A stretch of 62,996 bases of DNA, counting the filler, from Basidiobolus ranarum (Eukaryota): the NCBI GenBank assembly GCA_040143965.1. It is 26 parts of 26 records of this genome, joined end to end, with 100 filler letters (N's around TTAATTAATTAA, not from the genome) between each part and the next. Parts side by side here need not be neighbours in the genome. Positions count along the whole stretch, not along the records: positions 9,743 to 12,075 come from JASJQH010010338.1; 25 more parts are not named here. One strand, 5' to 3'. This document shows positions 1 to 38,298 of the stretch, piece after piece. The position numbers and the translations under genes were made by a program. How positions within the stretch are numbered: position 1 is the stretch's first letter; each line of letters starts with the position of its first letter. The notes beneath the pieces are model-generated. The model did no database searches and was not told where the DNA came from. It was given only the letters and a program-made list of their open reading frames with translations.

Positions 1-2338
1 GAGTACTGAAACCAACTTGGAAAATGATACATTGGAAATAGATACTGGAATTAGGCCAAATTTGGAATCTGAAACTATCTATCAACATTATCCAAATTTA
101 GAAAATATCACATCTGGGACAAGGTCTAAAACATCATCCACCGATGAATATATGACAAAGCTCAAATCATTACCAATCCCTGTGGTGAATATTCCTAGCA
201 GAAAACCAACAAGCAATAATCCTGTCTCAAACTTCACTACGAGTACTGAAACCAAGGAGAACAAACTATTATATGATATTCTGGAATCAAGCAGCTATAC
301 GAGTAGTGAAACATTAGGCAGCACTGGAAATGCACCAATTTATACCAGAAAACCTGATAATTACTCTGAGGATACTGATAATTTGGAACCAGCTTCTGGA
401 AATCAGCATATTATCTCTGCCAATGAAAAATATGGTAATCAGAAAAAGGATATTTTTCCAGCCAATCAGGAATCAGGAAATTGGGCTCAGAAACAAGGCA
501 ATAATTTTCTGACCAATCACATACCTAAGAAATATCCTACTCTCAATTTGGCTGATATTGGATGCAATCAATTATTGGAAGTATGCAATCAATCACAACA
601 AGTATTCAATCAATCACAAAATTCAGGCAATCAGGTCTCAGAAATCCTACCGAGTGGAAATCAGAAACATCCTCTAAGTGAAACATCTGACCATTCTACC
701 GAGGACTTTGGATGTCTCAAATCAGAGCATAAAATCAACAGTTTCAATTCAGAAAAAGGGTGGAATATATCTGCACATATAGCATTTTCTGAACCAGAAA
801 ATTTGACACAAGCTCTGAAATCTGATGAAGCAACAGAATGGAGAAAAGCCACTGATGATGAAATTCACTCCCTAATCAAGAATAACACATGGATCCTTGT
901 GGACTTACCTACTGGAAGAAAAACTATTGGTAATAGATGGGTGCTGAAACTGAAACTTAACTCAGATGGATCTATCAACCAGTACAAAGCAAGATTAGTA
1001 GTAAAAGGCTATGCTTAGAAACATGGCATTAACTATGATGCAACATTTTCTCCCATTGCTAAGTTTATCTCAATCAGAGTAATCCTTGCCATTCCTACCC
1101 ACCAAGGAATGCTGATTGAACAAATGGATGTCAAGATAGCATTTCTTAATGGAGAAAGTGATGAAGATATATACATGGATCAACCAGAGGGATGTATTGC
1201 ATAAGGAAAAGAAAATCAAGTATGCAAACTACAGAGAAGTCTATATGATCTGAAACAGGCTCCTCATGCATGGAATACCAAAATCAATCAGATCTTGATA
1301 AACATCTTTTCCATTGTAGCAAACCTGATCACTGCATATACTTCAAGACTATCAAAGCCACCAAAGTGATAATTGCTCTCTATGTTGATGATATTGTAAT
1401 AGTTGGTAATTGCTCAAATCTGATGAAACAAACTAAGACCTGGCTATATACTAGGTTTGAAATGCAAGATCTTGGATCACTAGCATATTGTCTTGGAATG
1501 CAGATACATCAAAATTCCACTATTGGAACACTCTGTATCACACAAGAAAAATATATTGGAGATGTTTAAACAGATTCAATATGTCAGAATGTAAAGCAGC
1601 TTCAAATCCACTACGTATGCTGAAATTCACTATGAATATTGAACCAAAGACCTCTGACAATATTGAAATCATGAAACTTATTCCTTACCATAGTGCAGTT
1701 GGAAGTCTCATATATGCAACAACTGGTACTAGGCCTGATATTGCTACAGCAGTAAGCATAGTAAGCAAACATATGAAAATCCTGCAATGGAACATTGGAT
1801 AGCTGTGAAACAGATAATATGCTATCTGAAAGGAACAGTATATGATGCAATTCAATTTAGTAAGCAGTACAACCTGTCACTTATTTTGGAAGGATATGCT
1901 GATGCAGACTGGGCTAACAATACAGAAGACAGTAAATCCAATACTGGATATGTGTTTAACCTAGCAGGTGGGCCAATAAGCTGGATTAGCAAGAAACAAC
2001 AAACTGTTGCATGATCAACTACAGAAGCAAAATATATGGCAAGCACTAGGGCTGTTCAAGAAGCTATATGGCTAAGGAGTCTTCTCAAGGAACTAGAATA
2101 TGATCAAGTTAATCCTACCCCAATATATCAAGATAATATTAGTTGTATTCAGAACACCAAGAATCCGGAGCATAACTCAAGAATGAAACATATTGACATA
2201 AGACATCATTTTATGCAAGAGAAAGTTCAAGACAAAGAAGTGAACTTTATTTATTGTAATACTGAAAACCTGCTTGCAGATATACTAACAAAACCACTCA
2301 AAACTTCAAGCTTTGAGAAGTTAAGAGCAGGAATAGGC
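1..2338 (+). mobile_element. Ty1/copia pol remnant (IN-RT linker, RT, RNase H), decayed
   Basis: RVT_2 motifs NNTWILVDLP/YKARLVVKGY, ALYVDDI, TRPDI; RNase H GYADADWA, KHIDIRHHF, LADILTKPL; several stops and frameshifts. Confidence 0.97.
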
Positions 2339-7492: not shown

Positions 7493-7977
7493 TTTGAATG
7501 AAGTGATTTATTACGTTTCACTGGCACCTCTTTTTATATTCATCAGAGAGGTTTTCAAGTACCTATATCTGGATCGCCTTTCTGGATATACTCTCACCTA
7601 TTATAGTGATATACTTAATAGTGACATTGACTTGATACTGGAAAATCCGCATTTAGACAGACACCTGCACACGAAGGTAAACATGTCTTTTTGATCATTA
7701 CATCGTTACTTGATTCGAATCTGGATCGTTCTCGCCTATCAACTCAGCAATCTCAATCACGAACAATGCCGAAGTAATCTTGGAACAGCCAAACAATTAA
7801 TTCCAACTCAACATTGATTAATTATTTTTGATCAATATTCTTGATTAATAAAAATAATAAAACTCAGCAAAATTTTTCAATTCTCATAAGATTTTTCATC
7901 CATGACTGATAAAATATTCGATTCATGTGCATTAGTGCTTTTCCCTATAACAGTCCACTATTTTCCACTTCTAGACT

Positions 7978-8865
7978 ATGTTTTTACTACGCTTGAATAG
8001 ACTTCAGCCTACTTTGGGTGTACAGTTACCAAGATCCTTATTGTCGAAATGCAAGTTCTCCACTTCCATCAAACCTTTACAATTTCAGCATACGAAGATT
8101 TTGCAACAACTGAAAGAAGTCAATGCCTTGCAAAACGCTGAACCTGCTCCAGCCAAGTTCACACCACTAAAGCAGGAACCTGCCCCCATTCCTGTCAAGA
8201 AGCATTTAGCACTAAAAAAAGTATATCTCAAACCTTGTTATGGCACAGGAAGACTAGGTGATACTGAGGTATACGTGTTGAAAGATCCATTTGAGGTGGA
8301 TTCTGGTATTAAGCACTTGTTGAGTAGCATCAAGCTGGAAAAAGGCCATGAGTTGAAGTGTGTCGGTTTCGATACGGAAACTACCGTCAAGTTCCACCAA
8401 CCCCGTCAAAAAGTTTCCACCATTCAACTTGGAAACGACGATGTTTGCTTGATTATTCAAATATCTAGAATGCTTAGAAAAGGACATCCATTCCCCATGT
8501 CCTTGAAAGAAATATTACAAAACCCTGATATCCTTAAGGTGGGAGTGGCTGCTACCGGAGATGGAAAACATCTACAAGAATCTTATGGAGTTGAGACGAA
8601 TGGCATCGTAGATCTTGAAAACATTGCCAAGAAGCTTAACGAAGATGGATTATCGCTAGCAAAATTGGCATCGAAATATGCGGATGGATTAGAATTAGTA
8701 AAGAACAAGAAGAAGATGTTACGTTGGAGGTGGGAGGAGACTCTTGATCACGAGCGTATCATGTATGCTGCACAAGATGCTGTATCTGGCTACCGAATTT
8801 ACAAAAACTTACTCATCAAGCAGAAGGAAGTGAAAAATTCTACAACTTCTTGTAATACCCAATAG
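7978..8865 (+). CDS. DEDDy 3'-5' exonuclease, WRN-exo/EXD2-like, with putative mitochondrial presequence (295 aa, intronless)
   Basis: ExoI VGFDTE, VSTIQL, L.NPDILKVGV..ExoII D, ExoIII YAAQDA; N-terminus rich in R/L/S with no acidic residues for about 45 aa. Confidence 0.92.
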   Translation: MFLLRLNRLQPTLGVQLPRSLLSKCKFSTSIKPLQFQHTKILQQLKEVNALQNAEPAPAKFTPLKQEPAPIPVKKHLALKKVYLKPCYGTGRLGDTEVYVLKDPFEVDSGIKHLLSSIKLEKGHELKCVGFDTETTVKFHQPRQKVSTIQLGNDDVCLIIQISRMLRKGHPFPMSLKEILQNPDILKVGVAATGDGKHLQESYGVETNGIVDLENIAKKLNEDGLSLAKLASKYADGLELVKNKKKMLRWRWEETLDHERIMYAAQDAVSGYRIYKNLLIKQKEVKNSTTSCNTQ

Positions 8866-9122: not shown

Positions 9123-9642
9123 TGTTGAAATCAGCATTGCCTAAGCACCTATATAGTCATATATAGCTTAGTATTTAGTTATCCTATATTGAACTAAGAT
9201 ATCACCCATTATTCTCATGAGGAATTGTTTAAATTAGCATTGCATAAACATCTATATAGTCATATATGGCTTAGTACTTAGTTATCTTATACTTCACTAA
9301 GATATTACCCATTATTCTCATGAGGAATTTACTTGGAATATTTTTACCAACTGAGAAGATATAGATATATAGTTTTTCAAACTTGTGCTAGAAGCCCAAA
9401 ACCTTGCACATATGTTCCTGGGCCCTTCCTGAACATATTTTCAACATTAGTTTGTTTACATCTTGACAAAAGTATAAATGTCAACTTTCTACTCAGTAAA
9501 TCAATAAGTGAAAACCACCAATTTCTCTAATTCTCTAAACCACTTCTAATAGGCTCCTAAATACTTTAACAACTTATGAGCCCTAAGCTTGCACTCTCTG
9601 TAATGTTTACTTCTCAAATTTCTGGAACTTCTCCCTCCTCTC
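9123..9642 (+). mobile_element. LTR-A nested in LTR-A (9123-9225; 9226-9571), PBS and gag start
   Basis: Second TGTT.AAATTAGC at 9226 ending TTTAACA at 9571; PBS (AC)TTATGAGCCC at 9572-9583; leader matches the one before gag at 34620. Confidence 0.88.
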
Positions 9643-10383
9643 NNNNNNNNNNNNNNNNNNNNNNNNNNNNNNNNNNNNNNNNNNNNTTAATTAATTAANN
9701 NNNNNNNNNNNNNNNNNNNNNNNNNNNNNNNNNNNNNNNNNNCTGAATTATCTCAGAACTTTTGGATCAATAATATATGCTTATATTCCTAAACCTCAGC
9801 ATAGGAAATAGGACAAAAAGGCAATTAAATGTATCCTATTAGGATAACAGAACAAAGGCTACTATCTCCTAATTGCTGGCACAAATTAAATCATCAACTC
9901 CAGAGACACTATATTAATTGAAGTAAATCTCAAATAGTTTAACCAAGGGAATTTGATTTTGGCTGAAAATCAATTTCTCAATAACTCAAATTCTGAGTCA
10001 ACAAGTTCTGAAACCAATCTTGAGCTAATGAGTATTGAAAACAACTTAGAAAATAATACATTGGAAATAGATACTAGAATTAGGCCAAATATGTAATCTG
10101 AAACTATCTATCAACATTGTCCAAATTTAGGAAATATCACATCTGGAAAAGGTCCAAAACATCAGCCACTGATGAATATATGACAAAGCTCAAATCATTA
10201 CAAATCCCTGTGATGATTATTCCTAGCAGAAAAACAAGAAGCAATAATCCTGTCTCAAACTGTACTACAAGCACTGAAACCAAACAGAACAAACTACTAA
10301 ATGATATTCTGGAATTAAGTAGCTATACAAGTGCTAAACATTAGGCAGCACTGGAAATGTACCAATTCATACCAGAAAACCTG

Positions 10384-10516
10384 TATATATGTTAGTTTGT
10401 TTACATCTTGACAAAACTATAAAGGTCAACTTTCTACTCAATAAATCAGTAAGTGAAAACCACCAACTCCACTAATTCTGCAAACCACTTCCAACAGGCT
10501 TACAAATACTTTAACA
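10384..10516 (+). repeat. 3' (R/U5) part of copia LTR-A
   Basis: Matches the last ~130 bp of LTR-A and ends TTTAACA. Confidence 0.9.
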
Positions 10517-10567
10517 GGTTATGAGCCCTGGTTAGTGCTAAATCCGGAAATCCTGCTTGAGGAGAAA
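10517..10567 (+). promoter_or_regulatory. 51-bp TRIM internal region: PBS GGTTATGAGCCC and PPT GAGGAGAAA
   Basis: PBS of the copia half-tRNAiMet type directly after an LTR end; purine tract directly before the next TG. Confidence 0.8.
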
Positions 10568-10849
10568 TGTTGAAAGTCTGGTGACTTGTGGTACAAGCAG
10601 TAATTCCCAAAGAGGAAAATATGGAGTATGGTGACTGCATCTGAATACAAAGTCTAAGGCCAATCAGTTGCTTATATAGCTGCAATGCCAAAGTACCATA
10701 CATTATCACACTAGGTTAAGGTTCCCTAGCAATATAGGCATAGTATACAATGACTGGTAGCTCACTGGTTAGAACACCTTGCTAGAGTGAAGGAGGTCCC
10801 AGGTTCAAATCCTGGCCAGACCAATATTTCTCCCTAAATAATTTCAATA
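10568..10849 (+). mobile_element. tRNA-containing LTR (282 bp, TGTTGAAA...TTTCAATA), TRIM/Helenus-like
   Basis: Inverted termini (one C>T change); second independent copy at 16756-16939. Confidence 0.85.
10751..10823 (+). tRNA. tRNA-derived sequence inside an LTR (73 nt; anticodon loop CT-AGA-GT, short variable arm; isotype uncertain, probably not a functional tRNA)
   Basis: Acceptor TGACTGG/CCAGACC, D arm GCTC-ACTGGTTA-GAAC, anticodon stem CCTTG/GAAGG, variable AGGTC, T arm CCAGG-TTCAAAT-CCTGG; A box TAGCTCACTGG and B box GGTTCAAATCC. Confidence 0.85.
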
Positions 10850-12517
10850 ATCTCTGCCAATGAAAAATATGGTAATCAGAAAAAGGATATTTTTCCAGCC
10901 AATCAGATATCAGGAAATTGGGCTCAGAAATAAGGCAATAATATTCTGAACAATCACAGACCTAAGAAATATCCTACTTTCAATTTGGCTGATATTGGAT
11001 GCAACCAATTGTTGGAAGTATGCAATCAATCACAGAGTTCTGGCAATCAGGTCAAAGAAATCCTACTGAGTGGAAATCAGGAACATCCTGTAAGTCAAAC
11101 ATCTGATCATTCTACCAAGGACTTTGTATATCTCAAATCAAAGCATGAAATCAATGGTTTCAATTCAGAAAAAGGGTGGAATATTATTGCACATATAGCC
11201 TTTTCTGAAACAGAAAATTGGACAAAAGCTCTGAAATCTTATGAAGCAACAGAATGGAGAAAAGCCACTGTTGATGAAATTCACTCCCTAATCAAGAATA
11301 ACACATAGATTCTTGTGGATGTACCTACTGGAAGAAAAATATTGGTAATAGATGGGTGCTGAAACTGAAACTTAACTTGGATGGATCTATCAACTGGTAC
11401 AAAGCAAGATTAGTAGTAAAAGGCTATGCTCAGAAACATGGCTTTGACTATAATGAAACATTTTCTCCCATTGCTAAGTTTACCTCAATCAGAGTAATCC
11501 TAGCCATTGCTACCTGCCAAGGGTTGATGATTGAACAAATGGATCTCAAGATAGCATTTCTTAATGTAGAAATTGATGAAGATATATACTTGGATCAACC
11601 AGAGAGATATATTGCAAAAGGAAAAGAGCATCAAGTATGCAAATTACAGAGAAGTCTATATGGTTTGAAACAACCTCCTTGTGCATGGAATACTAAAATC
11701 AATCAGATCTTCATGAAACATCTTTTCCATTATAGCAAAGCTGATCACTGCATATACTTCAAGACTATCAATGCCACCAAAGTGATAATTGCTTTCTATG
11801 TTGATGATATCATAATAGCTAGTAATTGCCCAAATCTGGTGAAACAAACTAAGACCTGGCTATCTACCAAGTTTGAAATGCAAGATCTTGGATCACTAGC
11901 ATGTTTTCTTGGAATGCAGATGCATTAAAATTCCACTATTGGAACACTCTGTATTACACAAGATAAATATATTGGAGATGTTTTAAACAGATTCAATATG
12001 TCAGAATGTAAAACAGCTTCAAATCCACTACGTATGCTGAAACTCACTAAGAATATGGAACCAAAGACCTCTGAANNNNNNNNNNNNNNNNNNNNNNNNN
12101 NNNNNNNNNNNNNNNNNNNTTAATTAATTAANNNNNNNNNNNNNNNNNNNNNNNNNNNNNNNNNNNNNNNNNNNNACAACCAAACTGCAAACTAGACTGG
12201 ACAAGCCAACACATACCACAGCATATCAACCTCAAGCCACAACTCATGCCTGCCAAGGTAGAGGAACTTCAGCAGGATCAAACCAACCAACTCAGTGCAG
12301 AGTTTCAAGCAAAGTTCCTTCCATGGAAATATCAAGGAGACAACAAAAATAACAGAAGCAAATCAGCATGTACCACTTCAAACCTGGGCAACTGCTGACT
12401 GCTCTTGTTAATACTTAAATTATCTGATCTTTACTGCTTAGTGCATCATGCAAATTCAATATGGTTTGCAGCTTAATATAGCATAAATTGCTTTAGTTGG
12501 ATCATGATTGCTTACGT

Positions 12518-14734: not shown

Positions 14735-15557
14735 GCAAGTTCACCATCACAAAAATTAACACTTGAATATATTCAGAACACAAGAATACAGGACCTCAAG
14801 ATGCTCACAAAATTAGTGATAACCTTTACACCAACTAATGGATTCTTTTCAAATTTGCACAGAGCTGCAGCAGTATCAGATGCTGATATGTTCAAAGTTT
14901 CAAAGCCACAGCTGCATTATTGGCGATCCTATTAGCCATTTGATGCTAAGCCACCCACTTACAGCTTTTATACTCAGCCACCAATTCATGGCATTTAATC
15001 TCAGCCATTTTCTAATGGAAGTAACCCTTCCCTATAGTGAAAAAGCTTCTAGCCTTAGCACCAACCAAAACTTCACCATATCCTTTATCCTCTCTTATAC
15101 TAGATATTCTACCCTGTATCAAGGTAGGATAATAAAGATTTCTATTGCAACTCAACTAGCCTTGAATATTAGAGATTGTAGTTCAGATTCACTCATGGTT
15201 ATCTTCACTTTTACAGCCATAGAATAGACTTTACTCTGGATCAAAGTCTTAGCCAATCTCAAAGAGCTATATATTTTTCTTAATACTTCAAGTTAGAAAC
15301 ACCACTAGAATTATATCTACCCTTGTAGTATTGAGGATTCCTGATAGATCTATCATCAGAAAAAATCTTTTCTCACAAAGTCCTCTAGCTACTGACATAC
15401 TATAGTGTGTCTTTACCCATTAAAGATAGAGTGAAGAATATATCTCCTATTGATATTTTTAAGCTTCCAGAATAAAAAATTCAGCTTTGCTGGAGATTTG
15501 TAGTAGGATTAAGTTTTCTTCTGAATATGTAAGTTAACACCCCTATCCCACACTATA
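14735..15557 (+). repeat. Repeat family X, 3' part, inserted in copia integrase
   Basis: Reverse complement of 12518-13330; interrupts the integrase at GIMQETTA. Confidence 0.75.
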
Positions 15558-16755
15558 GCAGTAGTTTCTTGCATAATTCCATGAACTTTACAAAAGTGAT
15601 TAAATAGTGTTGAAGTGTATTCTCCATCATTATCAGTACATATTTTCTTGCTTTTAGTTCCAGTATCAGTCTCTACAAGTGCTTTAAAATCTCTAAAGAT
15701 AGAGACAACTTCTTGTTTTTTTTCCATAAAGTAGACCCAAGTGCATCTTGTATAATCATCAATAAATGTGATTAAATATCCTTTTCCACCTAAAGATAAG
15801 TTTTGCATAGGTCAACACCAATCTGAATGAATTAGATCCAATTTATTGACAGATTTGATTGTACCAGAGCTCTTGAACAGCTTCTGGCTTGTTTTCCAAA
15901 TATTGAACCCTCACAAATTTTCATTTTGGTTGGGGATTATTTTGAAATCCAGATATTAGGCAATTTTTTATCATTTTGCTCAAATAATCTAATCCAATAT
16001 GGCCAAATCTCTTACACCATAATTGAATAGTTTCTTAATTAGAATAACTTATATTTGCACATACACCTCTTGGATTATATGTATAAGCTCTGATCCTTTT
16101 CCCCTGAAGCTAAATAAGTCCCATTTTGATCAGGGATGGTGCATCCTGACTTAGCAAATTTTGAACTTTAGCCCTTTTGAGGTGGCCTTGCATACAGATA
16201 TTAAATTCTTGGCAATATCTGGAGCTTGTAGTATATCCTTAGAAATATATACTTTCTCTTCAGAAACTCCAGTTAAATTGACTGGTGTTGTTCCCATTCC
16301 AATGGCATCCAATGTATGGTCATCTCCCATAAAAACCTTTCTAATTGGGTTTTCTTCATGATCCACAAACCAATGTTTTTCATTTGTGAAATGTTGGGAG
16401 GCTCCAGAATCAATATACCATGTCTGAGAATCCTTGTTGGAAGTCATAGATAGAGCAGATATAAATAAGCAATCTTCTGTTATAAGCACATATCCAGACT
16501 AGTATGTTTTTCTTCTTTTGCAATTCTTTTAAAGCAATCTTTGCTTCAATGGCCAGTTCTTTTACAGTAATCACAGAATGTGTGACTTTTCTTCTTAAAG
16601 TACTTTTGACCTTTTCAGGATGGTTTTCCATTGCCTGTTAAATCATTTTCTTCATTCTGTTGGTTGGATCCTAATTTGCATAAATTTTCATCCAGAAGTC
16701 TGCCAAATACATAATTTGAGGTCAAATTTTAAGTTCTTGATACTAGAGCCATTAC
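15558..16755 (-). mobile_element. Ty1/copia gag zinc knuckle-protease-integrase remnant
   Basis: CDYCKRTGH..DC, WYIDSGASQH, LIHSD, YLITFIDDYTR..W, TDNDGEY. Confidence 0.95.
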
Positions 16756-16939
16756 TGTTGAAAGTCTGGTGACTTGTGGTACAAGCAGTAATTCCCAAAG
16801 AGGAAAATGTGGAGTATGGTGACTGCTTCTGAATGCAAAGTCTAAGGCCAATCAGTTGCTTGCATAGCTGAAATGCCAAAGTACCATACATTGATGGACT
16901 AGGTTAAGGTTCCCTAGCAATATAGGCATAGCATACAAG
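16756..16939 (+). mobile_element. Second copy of the tRNA-containing LTR (5' 184 bp), inserted in copia gag
   Basis: Highly similar to 10568-10751; the contig ends on the first tRNA base (G, which restores the acceptor pair). Confidence 0.88.
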
Positions 16940-17503: not shown

Positions 17504-19369
17504 TTGCCTCAAAGTTTTGGTCATACTGCCAAAAGTCAAGATACCATGGAGTTATCACAGTTATATGACCAGAATCATGTAGGTCAAAATGCAACTTTGG
17601 TCAAACCAGTAAGTCAAGAGAACTTTAAGGACTTGCTGCTAGATATTGACTTTGGTTACTCCAGTACCAATGGTAGTATATCAGAAGTTGAAGAAGAAGA
17701 CAACCATTTTGTTATGGACTCTTTGTTATCAGCAAACATTAATCCACTCATAACACTTACAGTACAGGAAGCAGCTATGATTATTGAGGAGTGGAGAGTT
17801 CAATCTAATCTTAGCAACCAGGTCTTTATTGGTTTTCTCACACTTATACCACAATTGATTGGCAACTGTTGCTTGCCATGGACTTGGTACAGGTGGAAAA
17901 TACTTGTCAATTGTATGACTTATAATCCTTCAGTAATTAAACTGCCTTAATGTTCAAATGGTTGTTTGGCTTTCACCGTTGATCTGAAAACTTGAAGTCA
18001 TGAACTGTTTGCACACAATTGGCAATCACTGAATCAGGTAACTATTGTTCATATTTGCTTACATACCATTGATTCCCTGCCTTAGAGTTTTGATGAAATC
18101 ACCCAAATACAGAGATTGTTCCAATACCAAAGTACTCACCGTAAAGCTGATGGCATCATGGATATAGTTGATGGATATCACTACCAGAATCTGATTAGTC
18201 AAGGTTTCTTTGAGAACATGTATAATCATGCATTTGCATTGGCTCTGGATAGTTTCTCAGTATACAAATATACCATTGGAATGGCTTGCTGGCCAATAAT
18301 TTTAATCAACTTAAACCTTCCTCCTTCTGAACAGTCTACAAGTCATAATATCTTGACACTATCCATCTTATCTGGACCTAAATCACTAGTGCTTATAGAT
18401 AGCTTCTTGGAGCCTTTGATTGCAAAATTTGAATAGTTATCTAATGGGGTTCAGATAGGTGAGTATCTTATTAAAGCTAATATCATTGTATGTATTGGTG
18501 ACACTCCTGCGATGAGTAAACTTGGAGGTTTCATGGGCACAATGCACTATCTTGCTGTAGATTTTATCAAATTAATGGAGTTTACTCTAACAGACATATG
18601 CATTGCTACTATCCAAATACAACACTAAACTTCATGATTTTACCATCAAGAGCCTGGCCAGATTTCAACATGATCACTGATATTGATTCACCAAATAGTC
18701 AGCAGTACATCAAGCTTGGTATTAGCTGTAAGCCTAAGATTATATTCCTAAGGGGATTAGCTGGAGCCAGAGCTTCCCATTAGGCACTATGCACTTACTA
18801 TTCAACAACATTCCAATACTACTTACTAAGCTATATAGTGGAATATTCAATATGAATGAGCCATTTGAGATAGGATCAAAGTGTGAATTCATTGGGAAAA
18901 TGTTTGAAAACAGCAAGATACCATCACATTTTACCAAGACTCCCATCAATATCCACTCAGCAAGGCGTTTATTCAAATGCAAAGACTGGAAGTATTGGAT
19001 TTGTATATATTCCTGCAGAATTGTGAAATGATTCCTGCCTGATAAGTATTTGCAACATTGGGAGTTGTTTGTGGATATTGTTAATATATTCTTACAGCAT
19101 CAACTCTCATTGGCAGATCTAAGGCAGATACAGCAACTGTGCAAAGATTTTGTAATTGGATATGAAAAACTTTATTACAGGTTTAAGGAAGATAGACTGA
19201 ATCTCTGCCAGTATTCAATACATTCCCTGCTGCATCTTTCACAATGCTTAGCGATTATAGGCCCTTGCTATACATTCTGGGAGTTCCCAATGGAGCACAC
19301 CTGTGGTGAAATGATGCTTCATGTGAAATTGTCAGTATTACCATATGCTAATCTGATTAACAATGTATC
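17504..19369 (+). mobile_element. CMC/EnSpm Tnp2 transposase core, decayed
   Basis: ALALDSFS, WPIILINLNLPP, GDTPA.SKLGGF, KCKDWKYW, YEKLYYRFKEDRLNLCQYSIHSLLHL, FWEFPME. Confidence 0.93.
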
Positions 19370-22869: not shown

Positions 22870-24105
22870 TGTTAAAGTATTTGGGAGCCTGTTGGAAGTG
22901 GTTTGGAGAATTAGAACAATTAGTGGTTTTCACTTATTGATTTATTGAGTAGAAAGTTGACATTTATAGTTTTGTCAAGATGTAAGCAAACTAACATGTA
23001 GAATGTGTTAAGGAAGGTCCCAGGAACATGTGTGCAAAGTTTGGGGCCTCTAGCATAGGTTTGAAAAGTTTATATATCTGAGAACTTCTAAGTTGGTACA
23101 AATATTCTATGTAAATTCCAATTTAGAATAATGGATAATATCTTGATGAATTATAAGATAACTAAGTACTAAGCTATATATGACTATATAGGTGCCTAGG
23201 CAATGCTAATTTCAACACTCTCCCTCAACTAAATAGTCATATAAACCAATCCTAATAAAGGTCTAAACTTCTCAAATTTCTGTCTAGCTAATGGTTTGGT
23301 TGATATATCAGAAATTAGGTCTTCTGTAGAACAATAAGTTAAGTCAATAAACTAATTTTCTATAATCCCTCTAATTATGAGATGCTTAATATCTATATGT
23401 TTGCTTTTATTATGAAACATGGGATTTTTAGCTAATTTGATACAACTTTGGTTATCTTGAGATATTGTAGTTGGTGAATTTTGAAAATAACCCATATCTG
23501 TTTAGAGCTTTCTTAACCATATTGCTTCTTTTGTTGCTTCACAGAGAGCCATGTATTCAGCTTCTGTTGTTGAATGTGCTGTGGAAGGTTGTTTCTTTAA
23601 ATTCCAAGAAACAGCTCTGTTACAGCAAAGAAAAAGTATCCTGTAGTAGATCTCCTGTCTTCAATATCTCTTCCCCAATTTGCATCTGAATATCCCATCA
23701 GATCAAAGTTTGATCCAGAATATGCGTATTTTAAGCATAGATCCATAGTACCTCTCAAATATCTGAAAATCCACTTAACTGCTATGATTTGATTGGATCC
23801 AAAATTTTTAACATATTGACACATAACTCCCACAGAATATGCAATATCTGGCCATGTTCCAACCATGATATACATCAAACTAGCAACCATATATTGATAA
23901 GCAAATTTCTGGCTTTCATTTGAATCCAAAAACATCTGATTTGAGCCATTTTTGGTCATGTTAAGATTTTTCTCCATTGAGGTAAATACTGATTACATTC
24001 TTCCATTTTGAACTTCTTTAGTATATCTAGGATATACTTAGACTGGCTTAAAGTAATTGTTTTGGTAGTTCTATCTATCTTAATTTAGATTCCAAGACAG
24101 TGCAT
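22870..24105 (-). mobile_element. Copia-A 3' end: RT/RNase H, PPT (23218-23228) and 3' LTR (22870-23217)
   Basis: TWPDIAYSV, GYSDANWG.DIEDRRSTTGY; GAGGGAGAG immediately before TGTTGAAATTAGC. Confidence 0.95.
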
Positions 24106-31604: not shown

Positions 31605-32363
31605 GAGCCTGTTCGAAGTGGGTTGGAGAATTAGAGAAATTGGGGGTTTTCACTTATTGATTTATTGAGTTGAAAGTTGACATTTATAGTTTTCTCAAGA
31701 TGTAGGAGAACTAACATGTAGAATGTACCAAGGAAGGCCCCAGGAACATGTGTGCAAAGTTTGGGGCTTCTTTGAAGAATCTATATATCTGAGAACTTCT
31801 AAGTTGGTAAAATATTCTAAGTAAACTCTGATTGAGAATAATGGGTAATATCTTAGTGAAATATAAGGTAACTAAGTCCTAAGCTATATATGAGTATATA
31901 GGTATTTAGGCAATGCTAATTTCAACAATACATCCTTATTATATGAAAGAGACTTCTGGCAAATATGTGAGTAGTATTAAAACCTTATAACATCAAGGAC
32001 TTCTTTTTGGACCCTGTTTATGTTGAAGTATTAGGGAGTTTGTTGGAAGTGATTTGGAGAACTAAAAGAGTTGATGGTTTTTACTTATTGATTGATTGAG
32101 CAGAAAGTTGACATTTAGAGTTTGTCAAGAGGTAAAAAAACAAACGTGTACAATGTGCTAAGAAAGGTCCCAGGAACATGTGTGCAAATTTTGGAGCTTC
32201 TAAGAAAAGCTTGAAAAATCTGTATATCTGAGAACTTCCAAGTAAATTCCTCTTGAGAATAGTGTGTGATATCTTAGTGAAATACGGAATAACTAAGTAC
32301 TAAGCTATATATATATATATATATATGCCTATATTGATGTTTAGGCTATGCTAATTTCAATCA
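31605..32363 (-). repeat. Two LTR-A copies (31605-31927; 32021-32363) with a (TA)n expansion near 32306-32326
   Basis: Homology to LTR-A; TG..CA ends. Confidence 0.9.
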
Positions 32364-34030
32364 ATACTTGGCTATAGGGCAACATATATTTACAAAAGCC
32401 AAAGTGCCATGAATAGATGCAAACTCTGGACATTTCTAGCTCTCAAATAGTTCCAGGGAGGCTTGTTACGATTCAAGTTTTCCAGGTTCTGGGCTATTAG
32501 GCACTTAGTAATGATGTACCAATTGACCAAGTTCCATTGAATCGTTAGAGTGTCTGACTAAACTACTCGAATAATTGGTAGCGTATACGAGATAAAAGGG
32601 GATGTCTGTTCTTAATCAATATGCCATTGAAAGTCACGCCAATAGCTACAACGTCATGTTAACGAATATATGGCATCACAGCTAGAATAGAAATATTGGA
32701 TGTAGCCTTGGTACTGCAGTTGTGTGCCCTCTTACCAGCAATAAGCATAGTGATTAGAGAAATCCGACCACTCGATTTTGTTGACGTTAATGCTAGTGTC
32801 CATACAGAACCATGGTTTCAAGAGTATTCCAACAGTCTCACATGACAACACAACATTCCACATAACCAGGAGCAGCTTATTCAGGTATATTGCAGGGGTG
32901 CTCATCAGTCGTGCTTTCTAAATTTCAATATGAAACAAGGCTCTTGGTGAAGCTATAGCTAAACAAATGGTGGACATTTGAAAGGTTGGATTTGTATGTA
33001 GAATTGCAGTTATAATAATAGCCAGAGCGTGATTAAAAGGCTATTACTAACATTGAATTGCTAAACAACTAAGGCTCACGAAGCTATCTATTTGCCATTG
33101 ATGTCCGTAAGTACCCAAGTCACTCTACAAGGATGGAACCGGGTGATGACCGGTGTGATTTGAGATCTAATGATGTTGGGAAAGAGATCTAAGAAAACAA
33201 CTGATGGTTGCCTCCATAGTGAAATAAACATACGAAGAAACCAATCCGTTAAAATATGCCAGTGATTGGTGTCGCTGCTGTTGTATGTTAGCCGTGTTGG
33301 ACTTCTACCTGCGGCGAATGGCTGATAGTTTCCCCTTTTGGCTGATCTAAAAAGGAAGCATTCATCAGGATCCCCGATGCTGTGCAACAAGGCCACGAAA
33401 ACTCTCGTCCCCAACCATGTGTGGATATGATCCATCTTGGGTGTAATCGTGAGTGCACAATAGTCACTGCATTCACATACAAATAGATCCCAGGATACCA
33501 GCTACAATCCCCAATCTAGAGCTCTCAAATCGAATAGTGGAAGAACCTGCTGAGGAATCTACTGCATTTCCGTACACTAATGGATATCTACATCGACGGT
33601 CTCGACAATCTCCCACACAAGATCTCCGATTTTCATAGGGAAACGATGGATCCCTGGAATGGAATTTGGATTTCGTTCTCGGTTTGTGGAAACTAGACTT
33701 TTGGATGAATTTTTTTAATTCATGGAAGCTTGTTTATAGAAAGTATCTCGGGATGTCGAGCAAACTGATTGGATATGCCTTCGCTCTACATCAGTCCAAT
33801 CCTGTCTAGTTGGTTTACCAGTTGTAGTAAATGTATTATGTGCTTTGCTAAATCAAGGCCCATTTTAGCTAATAAATAAATTCTGACTGCTGTGAATCCT
33901 CATTGAATAAATGCACGTCATGTGTATGGTNNNNNNNNNNNNNNNNNNNNNNNNNNNNNNNNNNNNNNNNNNNNTTAATTAATTAANNNNNNNNNNNNNN
34001 NNNNNNNNNNNNNNNNNNNNNNNNNNNNNN

Positions 34031-35908
34031 TCCATATTGAACTAAGATTTCACTCATTATTCTAAAGAGGAATTTATTTGATATATTTTTACCAACTTAG
34101 AGGTTCTCATATGTATAGATCTTGAGAGCTAGTCCTAAAAGTTCCAAACTTTGCACACATACTCCTGGGACATTAATTAACACATTCTACCCCTTTGTTT
34201 ACTTATTTCTTGACAAAACTAAACATATCAACTTCCTATTCAATAAGTCAATAAGTAAATACCACCAATTCCTCTGTTTCTGCAACCAATATCTGTGGAA
34301 ATTAGCATTGTCTAGACACCTATATGGTGATATATAGCTTAGTATTTAGTCATCTATATTCCACTAAGATATCAGCTATTATTCTCAATCAGTATCTACT
34401 TAAAAGTACTCAGAAATAGAGATTTGCAAACTTGTTCTAGAAGCCCCAAACTTTGCTCAAATGTTTCTGGATTTTCTTTAACATATTCTACATATTAGTT
34501 TGCTTTTATCTTGATAAAACAATTAATGTTAATGTTATATTCTATAAATGAAAAAGTCAAAGCCACCTATTTCTCTAATTCTTCAAAACACTTCCACAAA
34601 GTCCCAAAATACTTCAACAAGTTACAAGCCACAAGCTTGCACTCCCTATAATATCCAATTCTCAAAATTTGTGAACTTTTCTCTCTTTGGCAGAATTGAA
34701 CGGAACCAATTCTCATATTTATAAAACAAAAATGAAAATACTACTGCAAGAAAAACAACTTTGGGACACTGTTGTAGGAGAAGGAAACAATATAAAACTA
34801 TCCAAAATCAAAGCTTTACTTCATATTAAAAAAGAACAAAGTGCCTTCAACACAATTTGTCTTCATGTTAAACATAAATTGCTAATTCAATGTCCAAGAG
34901 CCAAAACTTTCAAGAAGATCTGGAAAGCCTTGGAACATATCTACTCTACATGTCCTGCTACCAACAAGATGTTTTTATGAAGATAATTGATCAACTTACA
35001 AATAAATGCAGGAGAAGGCATTAGACCACTAACTAATACTTTCACTATTTAGGGGGATGCAACACAATGCATTTGTGTACCTACTAATGATCACAATATC
35101 AAAGTCACAGTCCTGAATAGCCTGCCAGACAAACTCCAGAGCCTAGTAAAGGCTCTAGAATCTACAACAGAAGCTTGAACCTATATTATAAATATAGCCA
35201 ATCTCTGGAGGAAGATTTATGTAAAGAAGCATGCAACTAAAAGAATGAAGTCAATGCTTTAATAGGTTATGCAAAGCTGTCCCATAAAGATCAAAGGCAC
35301 CTTGCAAAGAGAAGTAACCTATTCTGCAATTACTGTAAAAGAACTGGCTATTCAATCAGAGATGGCTTAAATAAAAAGCAAAAGAAGAAAAGCAAAACAA
35401 ATCTAGAAAGATAGTTATAGCAATTTTTCACTTGCCTGTACCTGCCCTATCTACTACTACCAACAGCAATGGTTTTCATCGGAGATAAATGTAAAATGAA
35501 TGCTATTGGAATGAGAACAATTTAAGTCAATCAAACTGGTGTTTTTGAAGAGAGAGTGTATACTATTAATGACATACTCTATGTTCCAGATATTGCCATG
35601 AACTTAATATCTGTATACCAAGATACTATGCAAGGACTAATATTCAAATTTGATAGGTCAGATGTATCATCACTCATCAAATGGTAATATATAAGCTTTG
35701 GGACAAAGGGATCAGAATATATACAAACTTGCATATATTTCAAGTGGTTTATATATAAATATAAATTGCTCCATTCAAGAAACTATTCACTTATGGGATG
35801 TGAGATTTGGCCATATTGGATTTACTTATTTGTGCCAGATGATTGAAAATTGCCTAATTTCTGCAATTCAGATTATCTCCATACCCAAAATGTAAGTTTG
35901 TGGGGGTT
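34031..35908 (+). mobile_element. Copia-A 5' end: nested LTRs (34031-34293; 34294-34619), degenerate PBS, gag-protease-pre-integrase
   Basis: LNGTN..IYKTKMKILLQEKQLWD (gag), CNYCKRTG, LWD.RFGHIG. Confidence 0.92.
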
Positions 35909-37041: not shown

Positions 37042-38298
37042 AATTAAAGTATTTGGGAGCCTGTTGGAAGTGGTTTGGAGAATTAGAGGAATTGGTAGTT
37101 TTCAATTGTTGATTTATTCAGTAGAAAGTTGACATTTATAGTTTTGTCAAGATGTAAGCAAACTAATATGTAGAATGTGTTAAGGAAGGTCCCAGGAACA
37201 TGTGTGCAAAGTTGGGGGCTTCTAGCCCAAGTTTGAAAAAATCTAGATATCTGAGAACTTCTAAGTTGGTAAAAATATTCCAAGAAAATTCCAATTGAGA
37301 ATAATGGATAATATCATAGTGAAATATAAGATAACAAAGTACTAAGCTATATATGACTATATAGGTGTTTGGGCAATGCTAATTTCAACACTCTCCCTCA
37401 ACTAATTAGTCATATAGACTAATCCTAATAAAGGTCTAAATTTCTCAAATTTCTGTCTATCTAATGGTTTGGTTAATATATCAGCAATCATGTCTTCTGT
37501 AGAACAATAAGTGAAGACAATAAACTTATTATCTATAGTCTCTCTAATGAAGTGATGCCTAATATCTATATACTTGCTTCTATCAGAAACATGGGATATT
37601 TAGCTAATTTGATACAACTTTGATTATCTTGAAATATTGTAGTTAGTGAATTTTGAGAATAATCAAAATCTGTTAAGAGTTTTCTTAACCATATTGCTTC
37701 TTTTGTTGCTTCACAGGGAGCCATATATTCAGCTTCTGTTGCTGAAAGTGATACAGTAGGTTGTTTCTTTGGATTCCAAGAAATAGCTCCATTACAGCAA
37801 CAAAATAAGCATCCTGTTGTAGATCTCCCATCTTCAATATCTCTTCCCCAATTTGCATCTGAATATCATATCAGATCAAAGTTTGATCCAGAATATGTGT
37901 ATTTTAAGCATAGATTAACAGTACCTTTCATGTATCTGAAAATCTGCTTAACTGCTATGATTTGATCAGATCCATAATTTTGATGATATTGGCACATAGC
38001 TCCCACTAAGTGTGCAATATCTGGCCATGTTCCAACCATGACATACATCAAACTACCAACCATAATTTGATAAGGAAATATCTAGCTTTCATATGAAACC
38101 AAAAACATCTGATTTGAGCCATTTTTGGTCAAGTTAAGATTTGTCTCCATTGGGATAGAAACTGTATTGCATTCCTCCATTTTAAACTTCTTTAGTATAT
38201 CTAGGATATACTTAGACTGGTTTAAAGTTATTGTTTTGTAGTTCTATCTATCTTAATTTGGATTCCAAGATAATATGTCACTTCACAAAGATCACTCA
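37042..38298 (-). mobile_element. Copia-A 3' end: RT/RNase H, PPT, 3' LTR (37042-37390)
   Basis: Closely similar to 22870-24105. Confidence 0.95.

Follow-up and report, generated by a model that had tools for sequence, protein, structure and literature searches.

How did the tail of a copia LTR come to stand, across a primer-binding site (PBS), in front of a short half-element that ends in a different LTR, one with a tRNA-like module? We found that the locus is a real, old and dead chimeric remnant, in which the U5 end of a copia LTR (LTR-A) and a PBS are joined to a half-element that ends in a Helenus-type LTR. The window, that is, the whole stretch of DNA analysed (62,996 bases), is composed of 26 unrelated contig pieces of 2318-2338 bp each, arranged in size order, and does not represent one chromosome stretch. 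The spacers between pieces read N44-TTAATTAATTAA-N44, which gives fifty 44-N runs paired around TTAATTAATTAA. Because the pieces are artificially joined, inferences that rely on adjacency across spacers are void. GC content is 31-38% across the window, nearly every piece is similar to several others (65-92% identity within the window), and the assembly behind it is highly fragmented and repeat-rich, with short contigs. The hybrid locus lies in piece 5 (9743-12075); the copia-A sequences used for comparison come from piece 4 (at 9123-9642) and from piece 15, starting at 34294.

Anatomy of the Hybrid Locus

A 466-bp block (10384-10849) is nested in the integrase-RT linker of a degenerate copia element, copia-H. 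The block contains, in order, an LTR-A tail, a 15-nt PBS, 27 nt, a purine tract and a complete 282-bp LTR (LTR-T). The features of the locus and the sequences compared with it are as follows.

9743-10383 (+): left part of copia-H as far as the left breakpoint, comprising a degenerate integrase C-terminus and the integrase-RT linker
10386-10516 (+): 3' ~131 bp of LTR-A, with a TATA-like box, AATAAA and the U5 end ...CTTTAACA; the 5' ~217 bp are missing
10517-10531 (+): PBS GGTTATGAGCCCTGG, 15 nt, by direct reading
10532-10558 (+): 27-nt spacer, unique in the window (no BLAST match)
10559-10567 (+): polypurine tract (PPT) GAGGAGAAA, directly adjoining the LTR-T start TGTTGAAAG at 10568
10568-10849 (+): complete 282-bp LTR-T (TGTTGAAAG...TTTCAATA), Helenus-type; start placed from a second copy, end from piece 1
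10751-10823 (+): decayed tRNA-like module in LTR-T; ARAGORN tRNA-Ser(aga); Rfam tRNA 37.2 bits (gathering score 29)
10850-12075 (+): copia-H resumes, linker and RT, with RVT_2 at 11302-11928 (E 1.4e-60)
357-412 (+): 56 bp of the copia-H in piece 1 without counterpart at the insertion site in piece 5, by paralogue comparison
9123-9642 (+): reference 5' end of copia-A in piece 4, with LTR-A (449 bp), PBS ACTTATGAGCCCT, leader AAGCTTGCACTC... and the contig end
16756-16938 (+): first 183 bp of the other LTR-T copy, 93.4% identity over 183 bp; the only other one in the window

In the copia-H of piece 5, SH3_retrovirus was recognised at 9743-9940 (E 3.9e-16, with 4 stops read as X). The paralogous copia-H in piece 1 matches both sides of the block at 90.2% identity (1-356 vs 10030-10383 and 410-1657 vs 10847-12074), and the block stands in place of 56 bp of target. 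In piece 1, these 56 bp lie inside one 338-aa open frame (2-1015) that continues into RVT_2. Copia-H was considered as a possible copy of copia-A and ruled out; the RNase H parts of the two are 55% identical over 51 aa, with no nucleotide match.

The PPT adjoins LTR-T, which at its own 3' end passes precisely into host sequence, so the right end behaves as an element terminus. A 5-bp TSD is a feature of fungal Helenus elements; no TSD was found around the 466-bp block (flanks ACCTG vs ATCTC) or around LTR-T alone (flanks AGAAA vs ATCTC), and solo-LTR readings were rejected on this ground. If the left end has been deleted, the missing TSD is uninformative. The flanks of the block also bear on a simple insertion of LTR-A with a 5-bp TSD, which the earlier note had named as the outcome that would speak against its reading; no such TSD is there.

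The Left LTR Is a Fragment of the Copia-A LTR

The left LTR had been identified in the earlier note as copia LTR-A and not the tRNA-bearing LTR. The family assignment was borne out, but only the last ~131 of ~348 bp are present, and the TGTTGAAA start is missing here. By BLAST, 10386-10516 matched the 3' ends of LTR-A at 8 other window sites (79-91% identity, E 6e-18 to 6e-49), and 9 rows of LTR-A 3' ends were aligned. The end ...CTTTAACA at 10516 is the same as at 9571. The subfamily nearest to the fragment is that of pieces 10, 16 and 20 (89-91% identity). A full LTR-A measures 347-348 bp, with complete copies at 22870-23217 and 37044-37390. The left end was also considered as a transcript start, produced by minus-strand copy-choice onto copia-A RNA and comprising R-U5 only; this reading was rejected because the LTR-A fragment reaches ~30 nt upstream of the TATA-like box.

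The element to which LTR-A belongs, copia-A, has a Ty1/copia layout, with LTR-PBS-gag at its 5' end and RNase H-PPT-LTR at its 3' end. At 34294-34977 in piece 15, an LTR-A-like repeat, a decayed PBS and the leader AAGCTTGCACTC are followed by a Retrotran_gag_2 ORF (34675-34977, E 5e-9). In pieces 10 and 16, RNase H motifs of the copia type precede the tract TTGAGGGAGAG, after which LTR-A begins; the motifs were recognised by eye, and one ORF has no Pfam match. The order of integrase before RT was seen in copia-H (SH3_retrovirus, then RVT_2) and not in copia-A itself. The leader that had been described for regular copia-A at 9572 and 34620 is present at both sites and runs into a gag ORF at the second, with the qualification that both sites are on contigs other than that of the hybrid.

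Several other LTR-A copies have unusual structures. In piece 4, the first ~105 bp of LTR-A are tandemly duplicated (9123-9329, units 88.6% identical), which accounts for its length of 449 bp vs the usual ~348 bp. At 34031-34300, an LTR-A lacks its last ~30 bp, and a further LTR-A-like repeat (TGTGGAAATTAGC) begins within 8 bp of where it stops; the junction at 34285-34294 looks like an LTR-A nested into the U5 of an older LTR-A. Two further LTR-A copies (31605-32365, -), 74% alike and in the same orientation, lie 91 bp apart (31929-32021). Neither a PBS nor a purine tract was found between them, and they therefore look like adjacent or nested solo LTRs. Nested and truncated LTRs are common in the window, which indicates that DNA-level decay is frequent here.

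Just upstream of LTR-A in piece 4, an open 296-aa frame (7975-8862, +) encodes a DNA_pol_A_exo1 3'-5' exonuclease domain (E 2.6e-20). Its whole length aligns with a protein of Basidiobolus meristosporus at 80% identity, the sole pointer in the window to a probably Basidiobolus-like host. RT homologues show at most 53% identity and gave no indication of taxon. An exact-pattern scan of public genome contigs with an LTR-A 24-mer returned 0 matches.

The Right LTR Carries a tRNA-like Module

The start of LTR-T was fixed by the second copy (16756-16938), the upstream flank of which is unrelated and not purine-rich, and its end at 10849 by comparison with the paralogous copia-H of piece 1. The tRNA-like module has a box A-like TAGCTCACTGG and a box B-like GGTTCAAATCC, and TAGCT..TGG and GGTTC can be read directly. 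Its MFE fold is not a cloverleaf (z -0.19). A tRNA-derived sequence with box A and box B is present in the LTR, as it is in Helenus. Two like LTRs around a short non-coding interior, as in Helenus, are not found here, the left LTR being a fragment of LTR-A. The PPT adjoins LTR-T as expected of Helenus, and the PBS is present but follows LTR-A and not LTR-T. Judged on LTR features and PBS type, LTR-T fits the Helenus type.

A copia-A-like element (14744-16756, -) harbours the second LTR-T copy in its gag-protease region, in antisense orientation. The minus strand of this contig, piece 7, encodes Pol_BBD and rve, and 16435-16756 is 71% identical to 35465-35145. The copy is cut by the contig end just before the tRNA-like part. 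Since it is the only other copy, no LTR-T followed by a PBS occurs in the window, and we infer the TRIM and its shared PBS from a single locus. The earlier note had spoken of a TRIM with a shared PBS; the PBS at the locus is present, whereas its presence in the TRIM itself was assumed. Low-stringency searches of the window returned no further copies of LTR-T or of the tRNA module, and exact-pattern scans with an LTR-T 20-mer gave 0, 0 and 0 matches in public metagenome, genome and viral contigs, respectively. The contig with the second copy breaks exactly at the expected start of the module, as if assembly had halted there at a high-copy repeat.

The Switch Maps to the PBS

The PBS core TTATGAGCCC occurs at exactly 2 window sites (9574 and 10519). 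The copia-A PBS at 9572 has just the central 11 nt (9574-9584) in common with the 15-nt PBS of the hybrid, and a search of the window for the latter with up to 3 mismatches returned no match besides itself. Read as its reverse complement, the PBS gives an anticodon stem with three G's, a CUCAUAA loop and the start of the return stem. A three-G anticodon stem with a CUCAUAA loop is a hallmark of initiator tRNA-Met. On the basis of these textbook features and of the PBS types described by Kojima (2024, PMC10886601), the PBS reads as one of the tRNA-iMet anticodon-loop type.

Past ...GAGCCCT, copia-A continues with AAGCTTGCACTC (at 9585 and 34633) and the hybrid with GGTTAGTGC (at 10530). BLAST found no match to the rest of the window over 10530-10567. 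The leader AAGCTTGCACTC is kept in the copia-A copies at 9585 and 34633, which belong to different subfamilies, and it is conserved even between LTR-A copies ~73% alike; the break is therefore not subfamily variation. These results confirm that the switch maps to the PBS, as had been proposed, with A-type sequence up to the PBS and sequence unrelated to the copia-A leader directly after it.

The spacer yielded no further copies at low stringency in the window, and a 20-mer from the PBS and spacer had 0 exact matches in public metagenome contigs. An origin of the spacer from the lost 56 bp of target was ruled out, as 46 of 500 shuffles score equally well. The PPT core TTGAGGAGAAA resembles the copia-A PPT TTGAGGGAGAG at 23218 and 37391, a marginal similarity in that fractions of 0.056 and 0.038 of 3000 random 20-mers score equally well.

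Possible Origins of the Join

One broken copy cannot show the mechanism of the join. Our tentative choice, which we put short of an even chance, is an origin by plus-strand transfer in trans. The fuller version, in which a copia RNA and the RNA of a Pol III-type (Helenus-like) TRIM took part in such a transfer inside one particle and the locus would be its fossil, we hold with somewhat more reserve. Copia-A and TRIM RNAs would have been packaged in one copia-A-type particle and each reverse-transcribed. Plus-strand strong-stop DNA of copia-A, a copy of LTR-A and the PBS, would then have paired in trans with the complement of the PBS on the minus strand of the TRIM. The exchange point is the PBS, the only long exact block that both families can share, flanked by the related ~20-nt U5 end. 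The product, LTR-A/PBS/27 nt/PPT/LTR-T, would have been inserted by integrase, which could act on the hybrid because both LTR families have common termini. The element that entered the integrase-RT linker of an unrelated copia would in this way have had a tRNA-bearing LTR of Helenus type at its end, and a later deletion would have stripped the locus of the left TSD and 56 bp of target along with ~217 bp of LTR-A.

The junction between donor and acceptor lies in the PBS, as the product of a trans transfer of plus-strand strong-stop DNA requires. We give trans transfer a small preference because the PBS is an obligatory transfer site, because two non-homologous RNAs within one particle can each yield a minus strand, and because the right end is an intact element terminus. 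The plus-strand template switch put forward in the earlier note is thus coherent, and it predicts the exact order LTR-A/PBS/TRIM interior/PPT/LTR-T, but it is inseparable from an exchange at the PBS after integration. Against it stand the single copy, the acceptor PBS, which is hypothetical, with no LTR-T/PBS junction in the window, and the frequency of nested and truncated LTRs here. The diagnostic features of a plus-strand transfer product, a full left LTR (131 of ~348 bp are left) and a 5-bp TSD, are gone. Flanking TSDs are the criterion for an origin in reverse transcription (Sabot & Schulman 2007, PMC1950507), and a locus with a left LTR fragment, no TSD and 56 bp lost cannot display them. 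The interior of 51 bp is below the 85 bp termed short by Kojima (2024, PMC10886601), so the locus may also have lost interior sequence. Recombination during reverse transcription normally yields two identical LTRs (Drost & Sanchez 2019), and unlike LTRs therefore need a special event. The second strand transfer of retroviruses is described as "generally intramolecular," and trans transfer has been proposed (Cappy 2017).

An alternative that also fits, and that we place only a little lower, is a DNA event after integration. In this reading a normal LTR-T TRIM would have been inserted first and would have had its left side replaced later, through an exchange at the PBS. In one version, a copia-A lands directly upstream, and the 15-nt PBS copies of the two elements act as direct repeats between which a deletion fuses them. 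In the other, an ectopic copia-A serves as template for break repair; copying is primed at the PBS, and the product is joined to host DNA at its resected end. The absence of a TSD, the truncation of LTR-A and the loss of 56 bp of target would all fall under one event class; the convention for complexes that lack TSDs is to explain them by recombination of neighbouring elements (Sabot & Schulman 2007, PMC1950507), and the nested LTR-A at 34285-34294 and the pair separated by 31929-32021 demonstrate how frequent decay is here. The same event demands two insertions and two deletions, or else a templated repair with no more than 15 nt of homology to prime it. Since the U5 end is A-type throughout, the related ~20-nt U5 block was not used in such an exchange, and no traces of a left LTR-T or of a copia-A interior are present at the locus. 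Integrase-free capture of aberrant reverse-transcription products at a break, with a cDNA patchwork filling the 56-bp gap, is unlikely. A target deletion and a truncated left end are typical of end joining, and the left piece stops exactly where plus-strand strong-stop DNA ends (LTR and PBS), as the right piece does at a cDNA terminus. However, the pieces are arranged and oriented exactly as in a functional element (PBS ... PPT-LTR), which is likelier by ordered strand transfer than by random ligation, and neither filler nor microhomology is recognisable at 10383/10384.

The fragmented, repeat-rich assembly, with 26 contigs of ~2.3 kb in the window, could itself have produced the join if the assembler had connected two repeat families at the shared PBS. 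The exact overlap could be at most ~16 nt (11 nt with the copia-A copies in the window), which is shorter than the k-mers or overlaps in usual use, and 10517-10567 is spanned by no exact repeat of at least 14 nt common to the rest of the window (within 63 kb). Misassembly is therefore quite unlikely, and to the left and right of the block the contig keeps the same order as its paralogue. The least probable of these readings, to which we give very little credence, is chance juxtaposition: a solo LTR-A that hit a TRIM precisely where its LTR meets the PBS, or a solo LTR-T beside a purine run in an element that bears LTR-A but has a different leader. Elements inserted into one another are frequent in the window, and the leader of the closest LTR-A subfamily (pieces 10, 16 and 20) is absent from the window. 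Nevertheless, a base-exact position would be required on a target of ~600 bp, LTR-T has no TSD in its flanks (AGAAA vs ATCTC), and it is followed by host pol and not by the remainder of an LTR-A element. The conservation of the leader between LTR-A copies only 73% alike also makes a different leader unlikely.

Comparison with Known Systems

Helenus elements (TRIMp3) are TRIMs of 311-1263 bp with tRNA-derived sequence in their LTRs; those of fungi mostly use the tRNA-iMet anticodon loop as PBS, and their published hosts are Pucciniales and Agaricomycetes (Kojima 2024, PMC10886601). They have PBS regions in common with Copia and 5-bp TSDs, they are thought to be mobilised by Copia, and one family has a Copia interior between unrelated LTRs (Kojima 2024, PMC10886601). 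The present locus resembles them in its 282-bp LTR-T, in which the decayed tRNA-like module keeps TRGCY..YGG and GGTTC, in the PPT before LTR-T and in the tRNA-iMet anticodon-loop PBS, which is dominant in fungal Helenus and is also that of Copia. The ARAGORN call of Ser-AGA is a type listed for fungal Helenus. The locus differs in having one LTR-T, a copia LTR fragment as left LTR, no TSD and an interior of 51 bp, and its host is Basidiobolus and not one of the published groups. In the text of the Helenus paper, supplements aside, "chimer" and "hybrid" do not occur (Kojima 2024, PMC10886601).

Cassandra, a TRIM with 5S rRNA in its LTRs (Yin 2014, PMC4079214), likewise has a Pol III-type module inside TRIM LTRs. 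Its multi-LTR recombinants reflect frequent inter-element recombination and occur with and without TSDs (Yin 2014, PMC4079214). Unlike the present locus, Cassandra has 5S and not tRNA sequence and a plant host, and its recombinants unite Cassandra copies with each other rather than a TRIM with an autonomous copia LTR. In the template-switch complexes described by Sabot & Schulman (2007, PMC1950507), two co-packaged RNAs give rise to one abnormal daughter in reverse transcription, as would be the case here. Those complexes have three LTRs of one family, TSDs and matching outer LTRs, whereas our locus has two unlike LTRs, a junction at the PBS and no TSD. The PBS is complementary to the anticodon stem-loop of tRNA-iMet and directly follows the LTR, as in the half-tRNA priming of Copia and Ty5 (as cited in Kojima 2024, PMC10886601), and no difference in the PBS from the description given there was apparent.

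The present locus also invites comparison with LTR exchange between autonomous and non-autonomous partners in plants. Such LTR swapping is said to have been described in soybean by Du et al. (Plant Cell, in 2010); the elements reportedly belong to Gypsy-type families, and the swapped elements still amplify as whole families. The exchange between autonomous and non-autonomous partners is alike, and the locus studied here differs in being one dead copy.

Helenus, Cassandra, recombinants with unlike LTRs, complexes formed at the reverse-transcription stage and LTR swapping between partners are thus already known. Literature listings and abstracts contained no report of a copia/TRIM (copia-LTR/Helenus-LTR) chimera joined at the PBS.

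Copia-A as a Candidate Partner

LTR-T and LTR-A have the same first 8 nt (TGTTGAAA) and related last ~20 nt. In comparisons of the last 22 nt of LTR-T with 5 LTR-A ends, the score was beaten or equalled by 0, 10, 0, 1 and 3 of 3000 random 22-mers. LTR-T as an LTR-A diverged throughout was considered and ruled out; the local score is 21 vs a shuffle mean of 19.4, and the termini alone match. That both LTRs begin with TGTTGAAA had been pointed out before, and it is true of the families. With 16 occurrences in the window, however, the octamer is a weak marker by itself.

The common termini of LTR-T and LTR-A suggest a copia-A-like partner independently of the chimera. The proposal of the earlier note that copia-A is the autonomous partner thus gains modest independent support from the LTR termini and from the Helenus literature, and none from the chimera itself.

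A Helenus-like, tRNA-bearing LTR in a Basidiobolus-like fungus is one of the two main solid results of this analysis, and the common LTR termini that point to a copia-A-like helper are the other. As the published fungal hosts are Pucciniales and Agaricomycetes, a Basidiobolus host would extend the range of Helenus. The ties of TRIMs to autonomous helpers are open for Helenus and Cassandra, and so is the occurrence of copia interiors between unrelated LTRs (Kojima 2024, PMC10886601). If hybrids joined at the PBS were to recur with intact TSDs, they would identify the helper and reveal how LTRs are swapped. If trans transfer is the true origin, the locus would be direct physical evidence for the identity of the autonomous element that mobilises such a TRIM, a swap of LTR and interior between partners caught in the act at the PBS, and an example in an early-diverging fungus, where such TRIMs are undescribed.

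At 18663, 55613, 55677 and 56003, another repeat family shows ...GTGATCA followed directly by TGTTGAAATCTG. The 8-nt start common to LTR-A and LTR-T may mark further LTR families in this genome.
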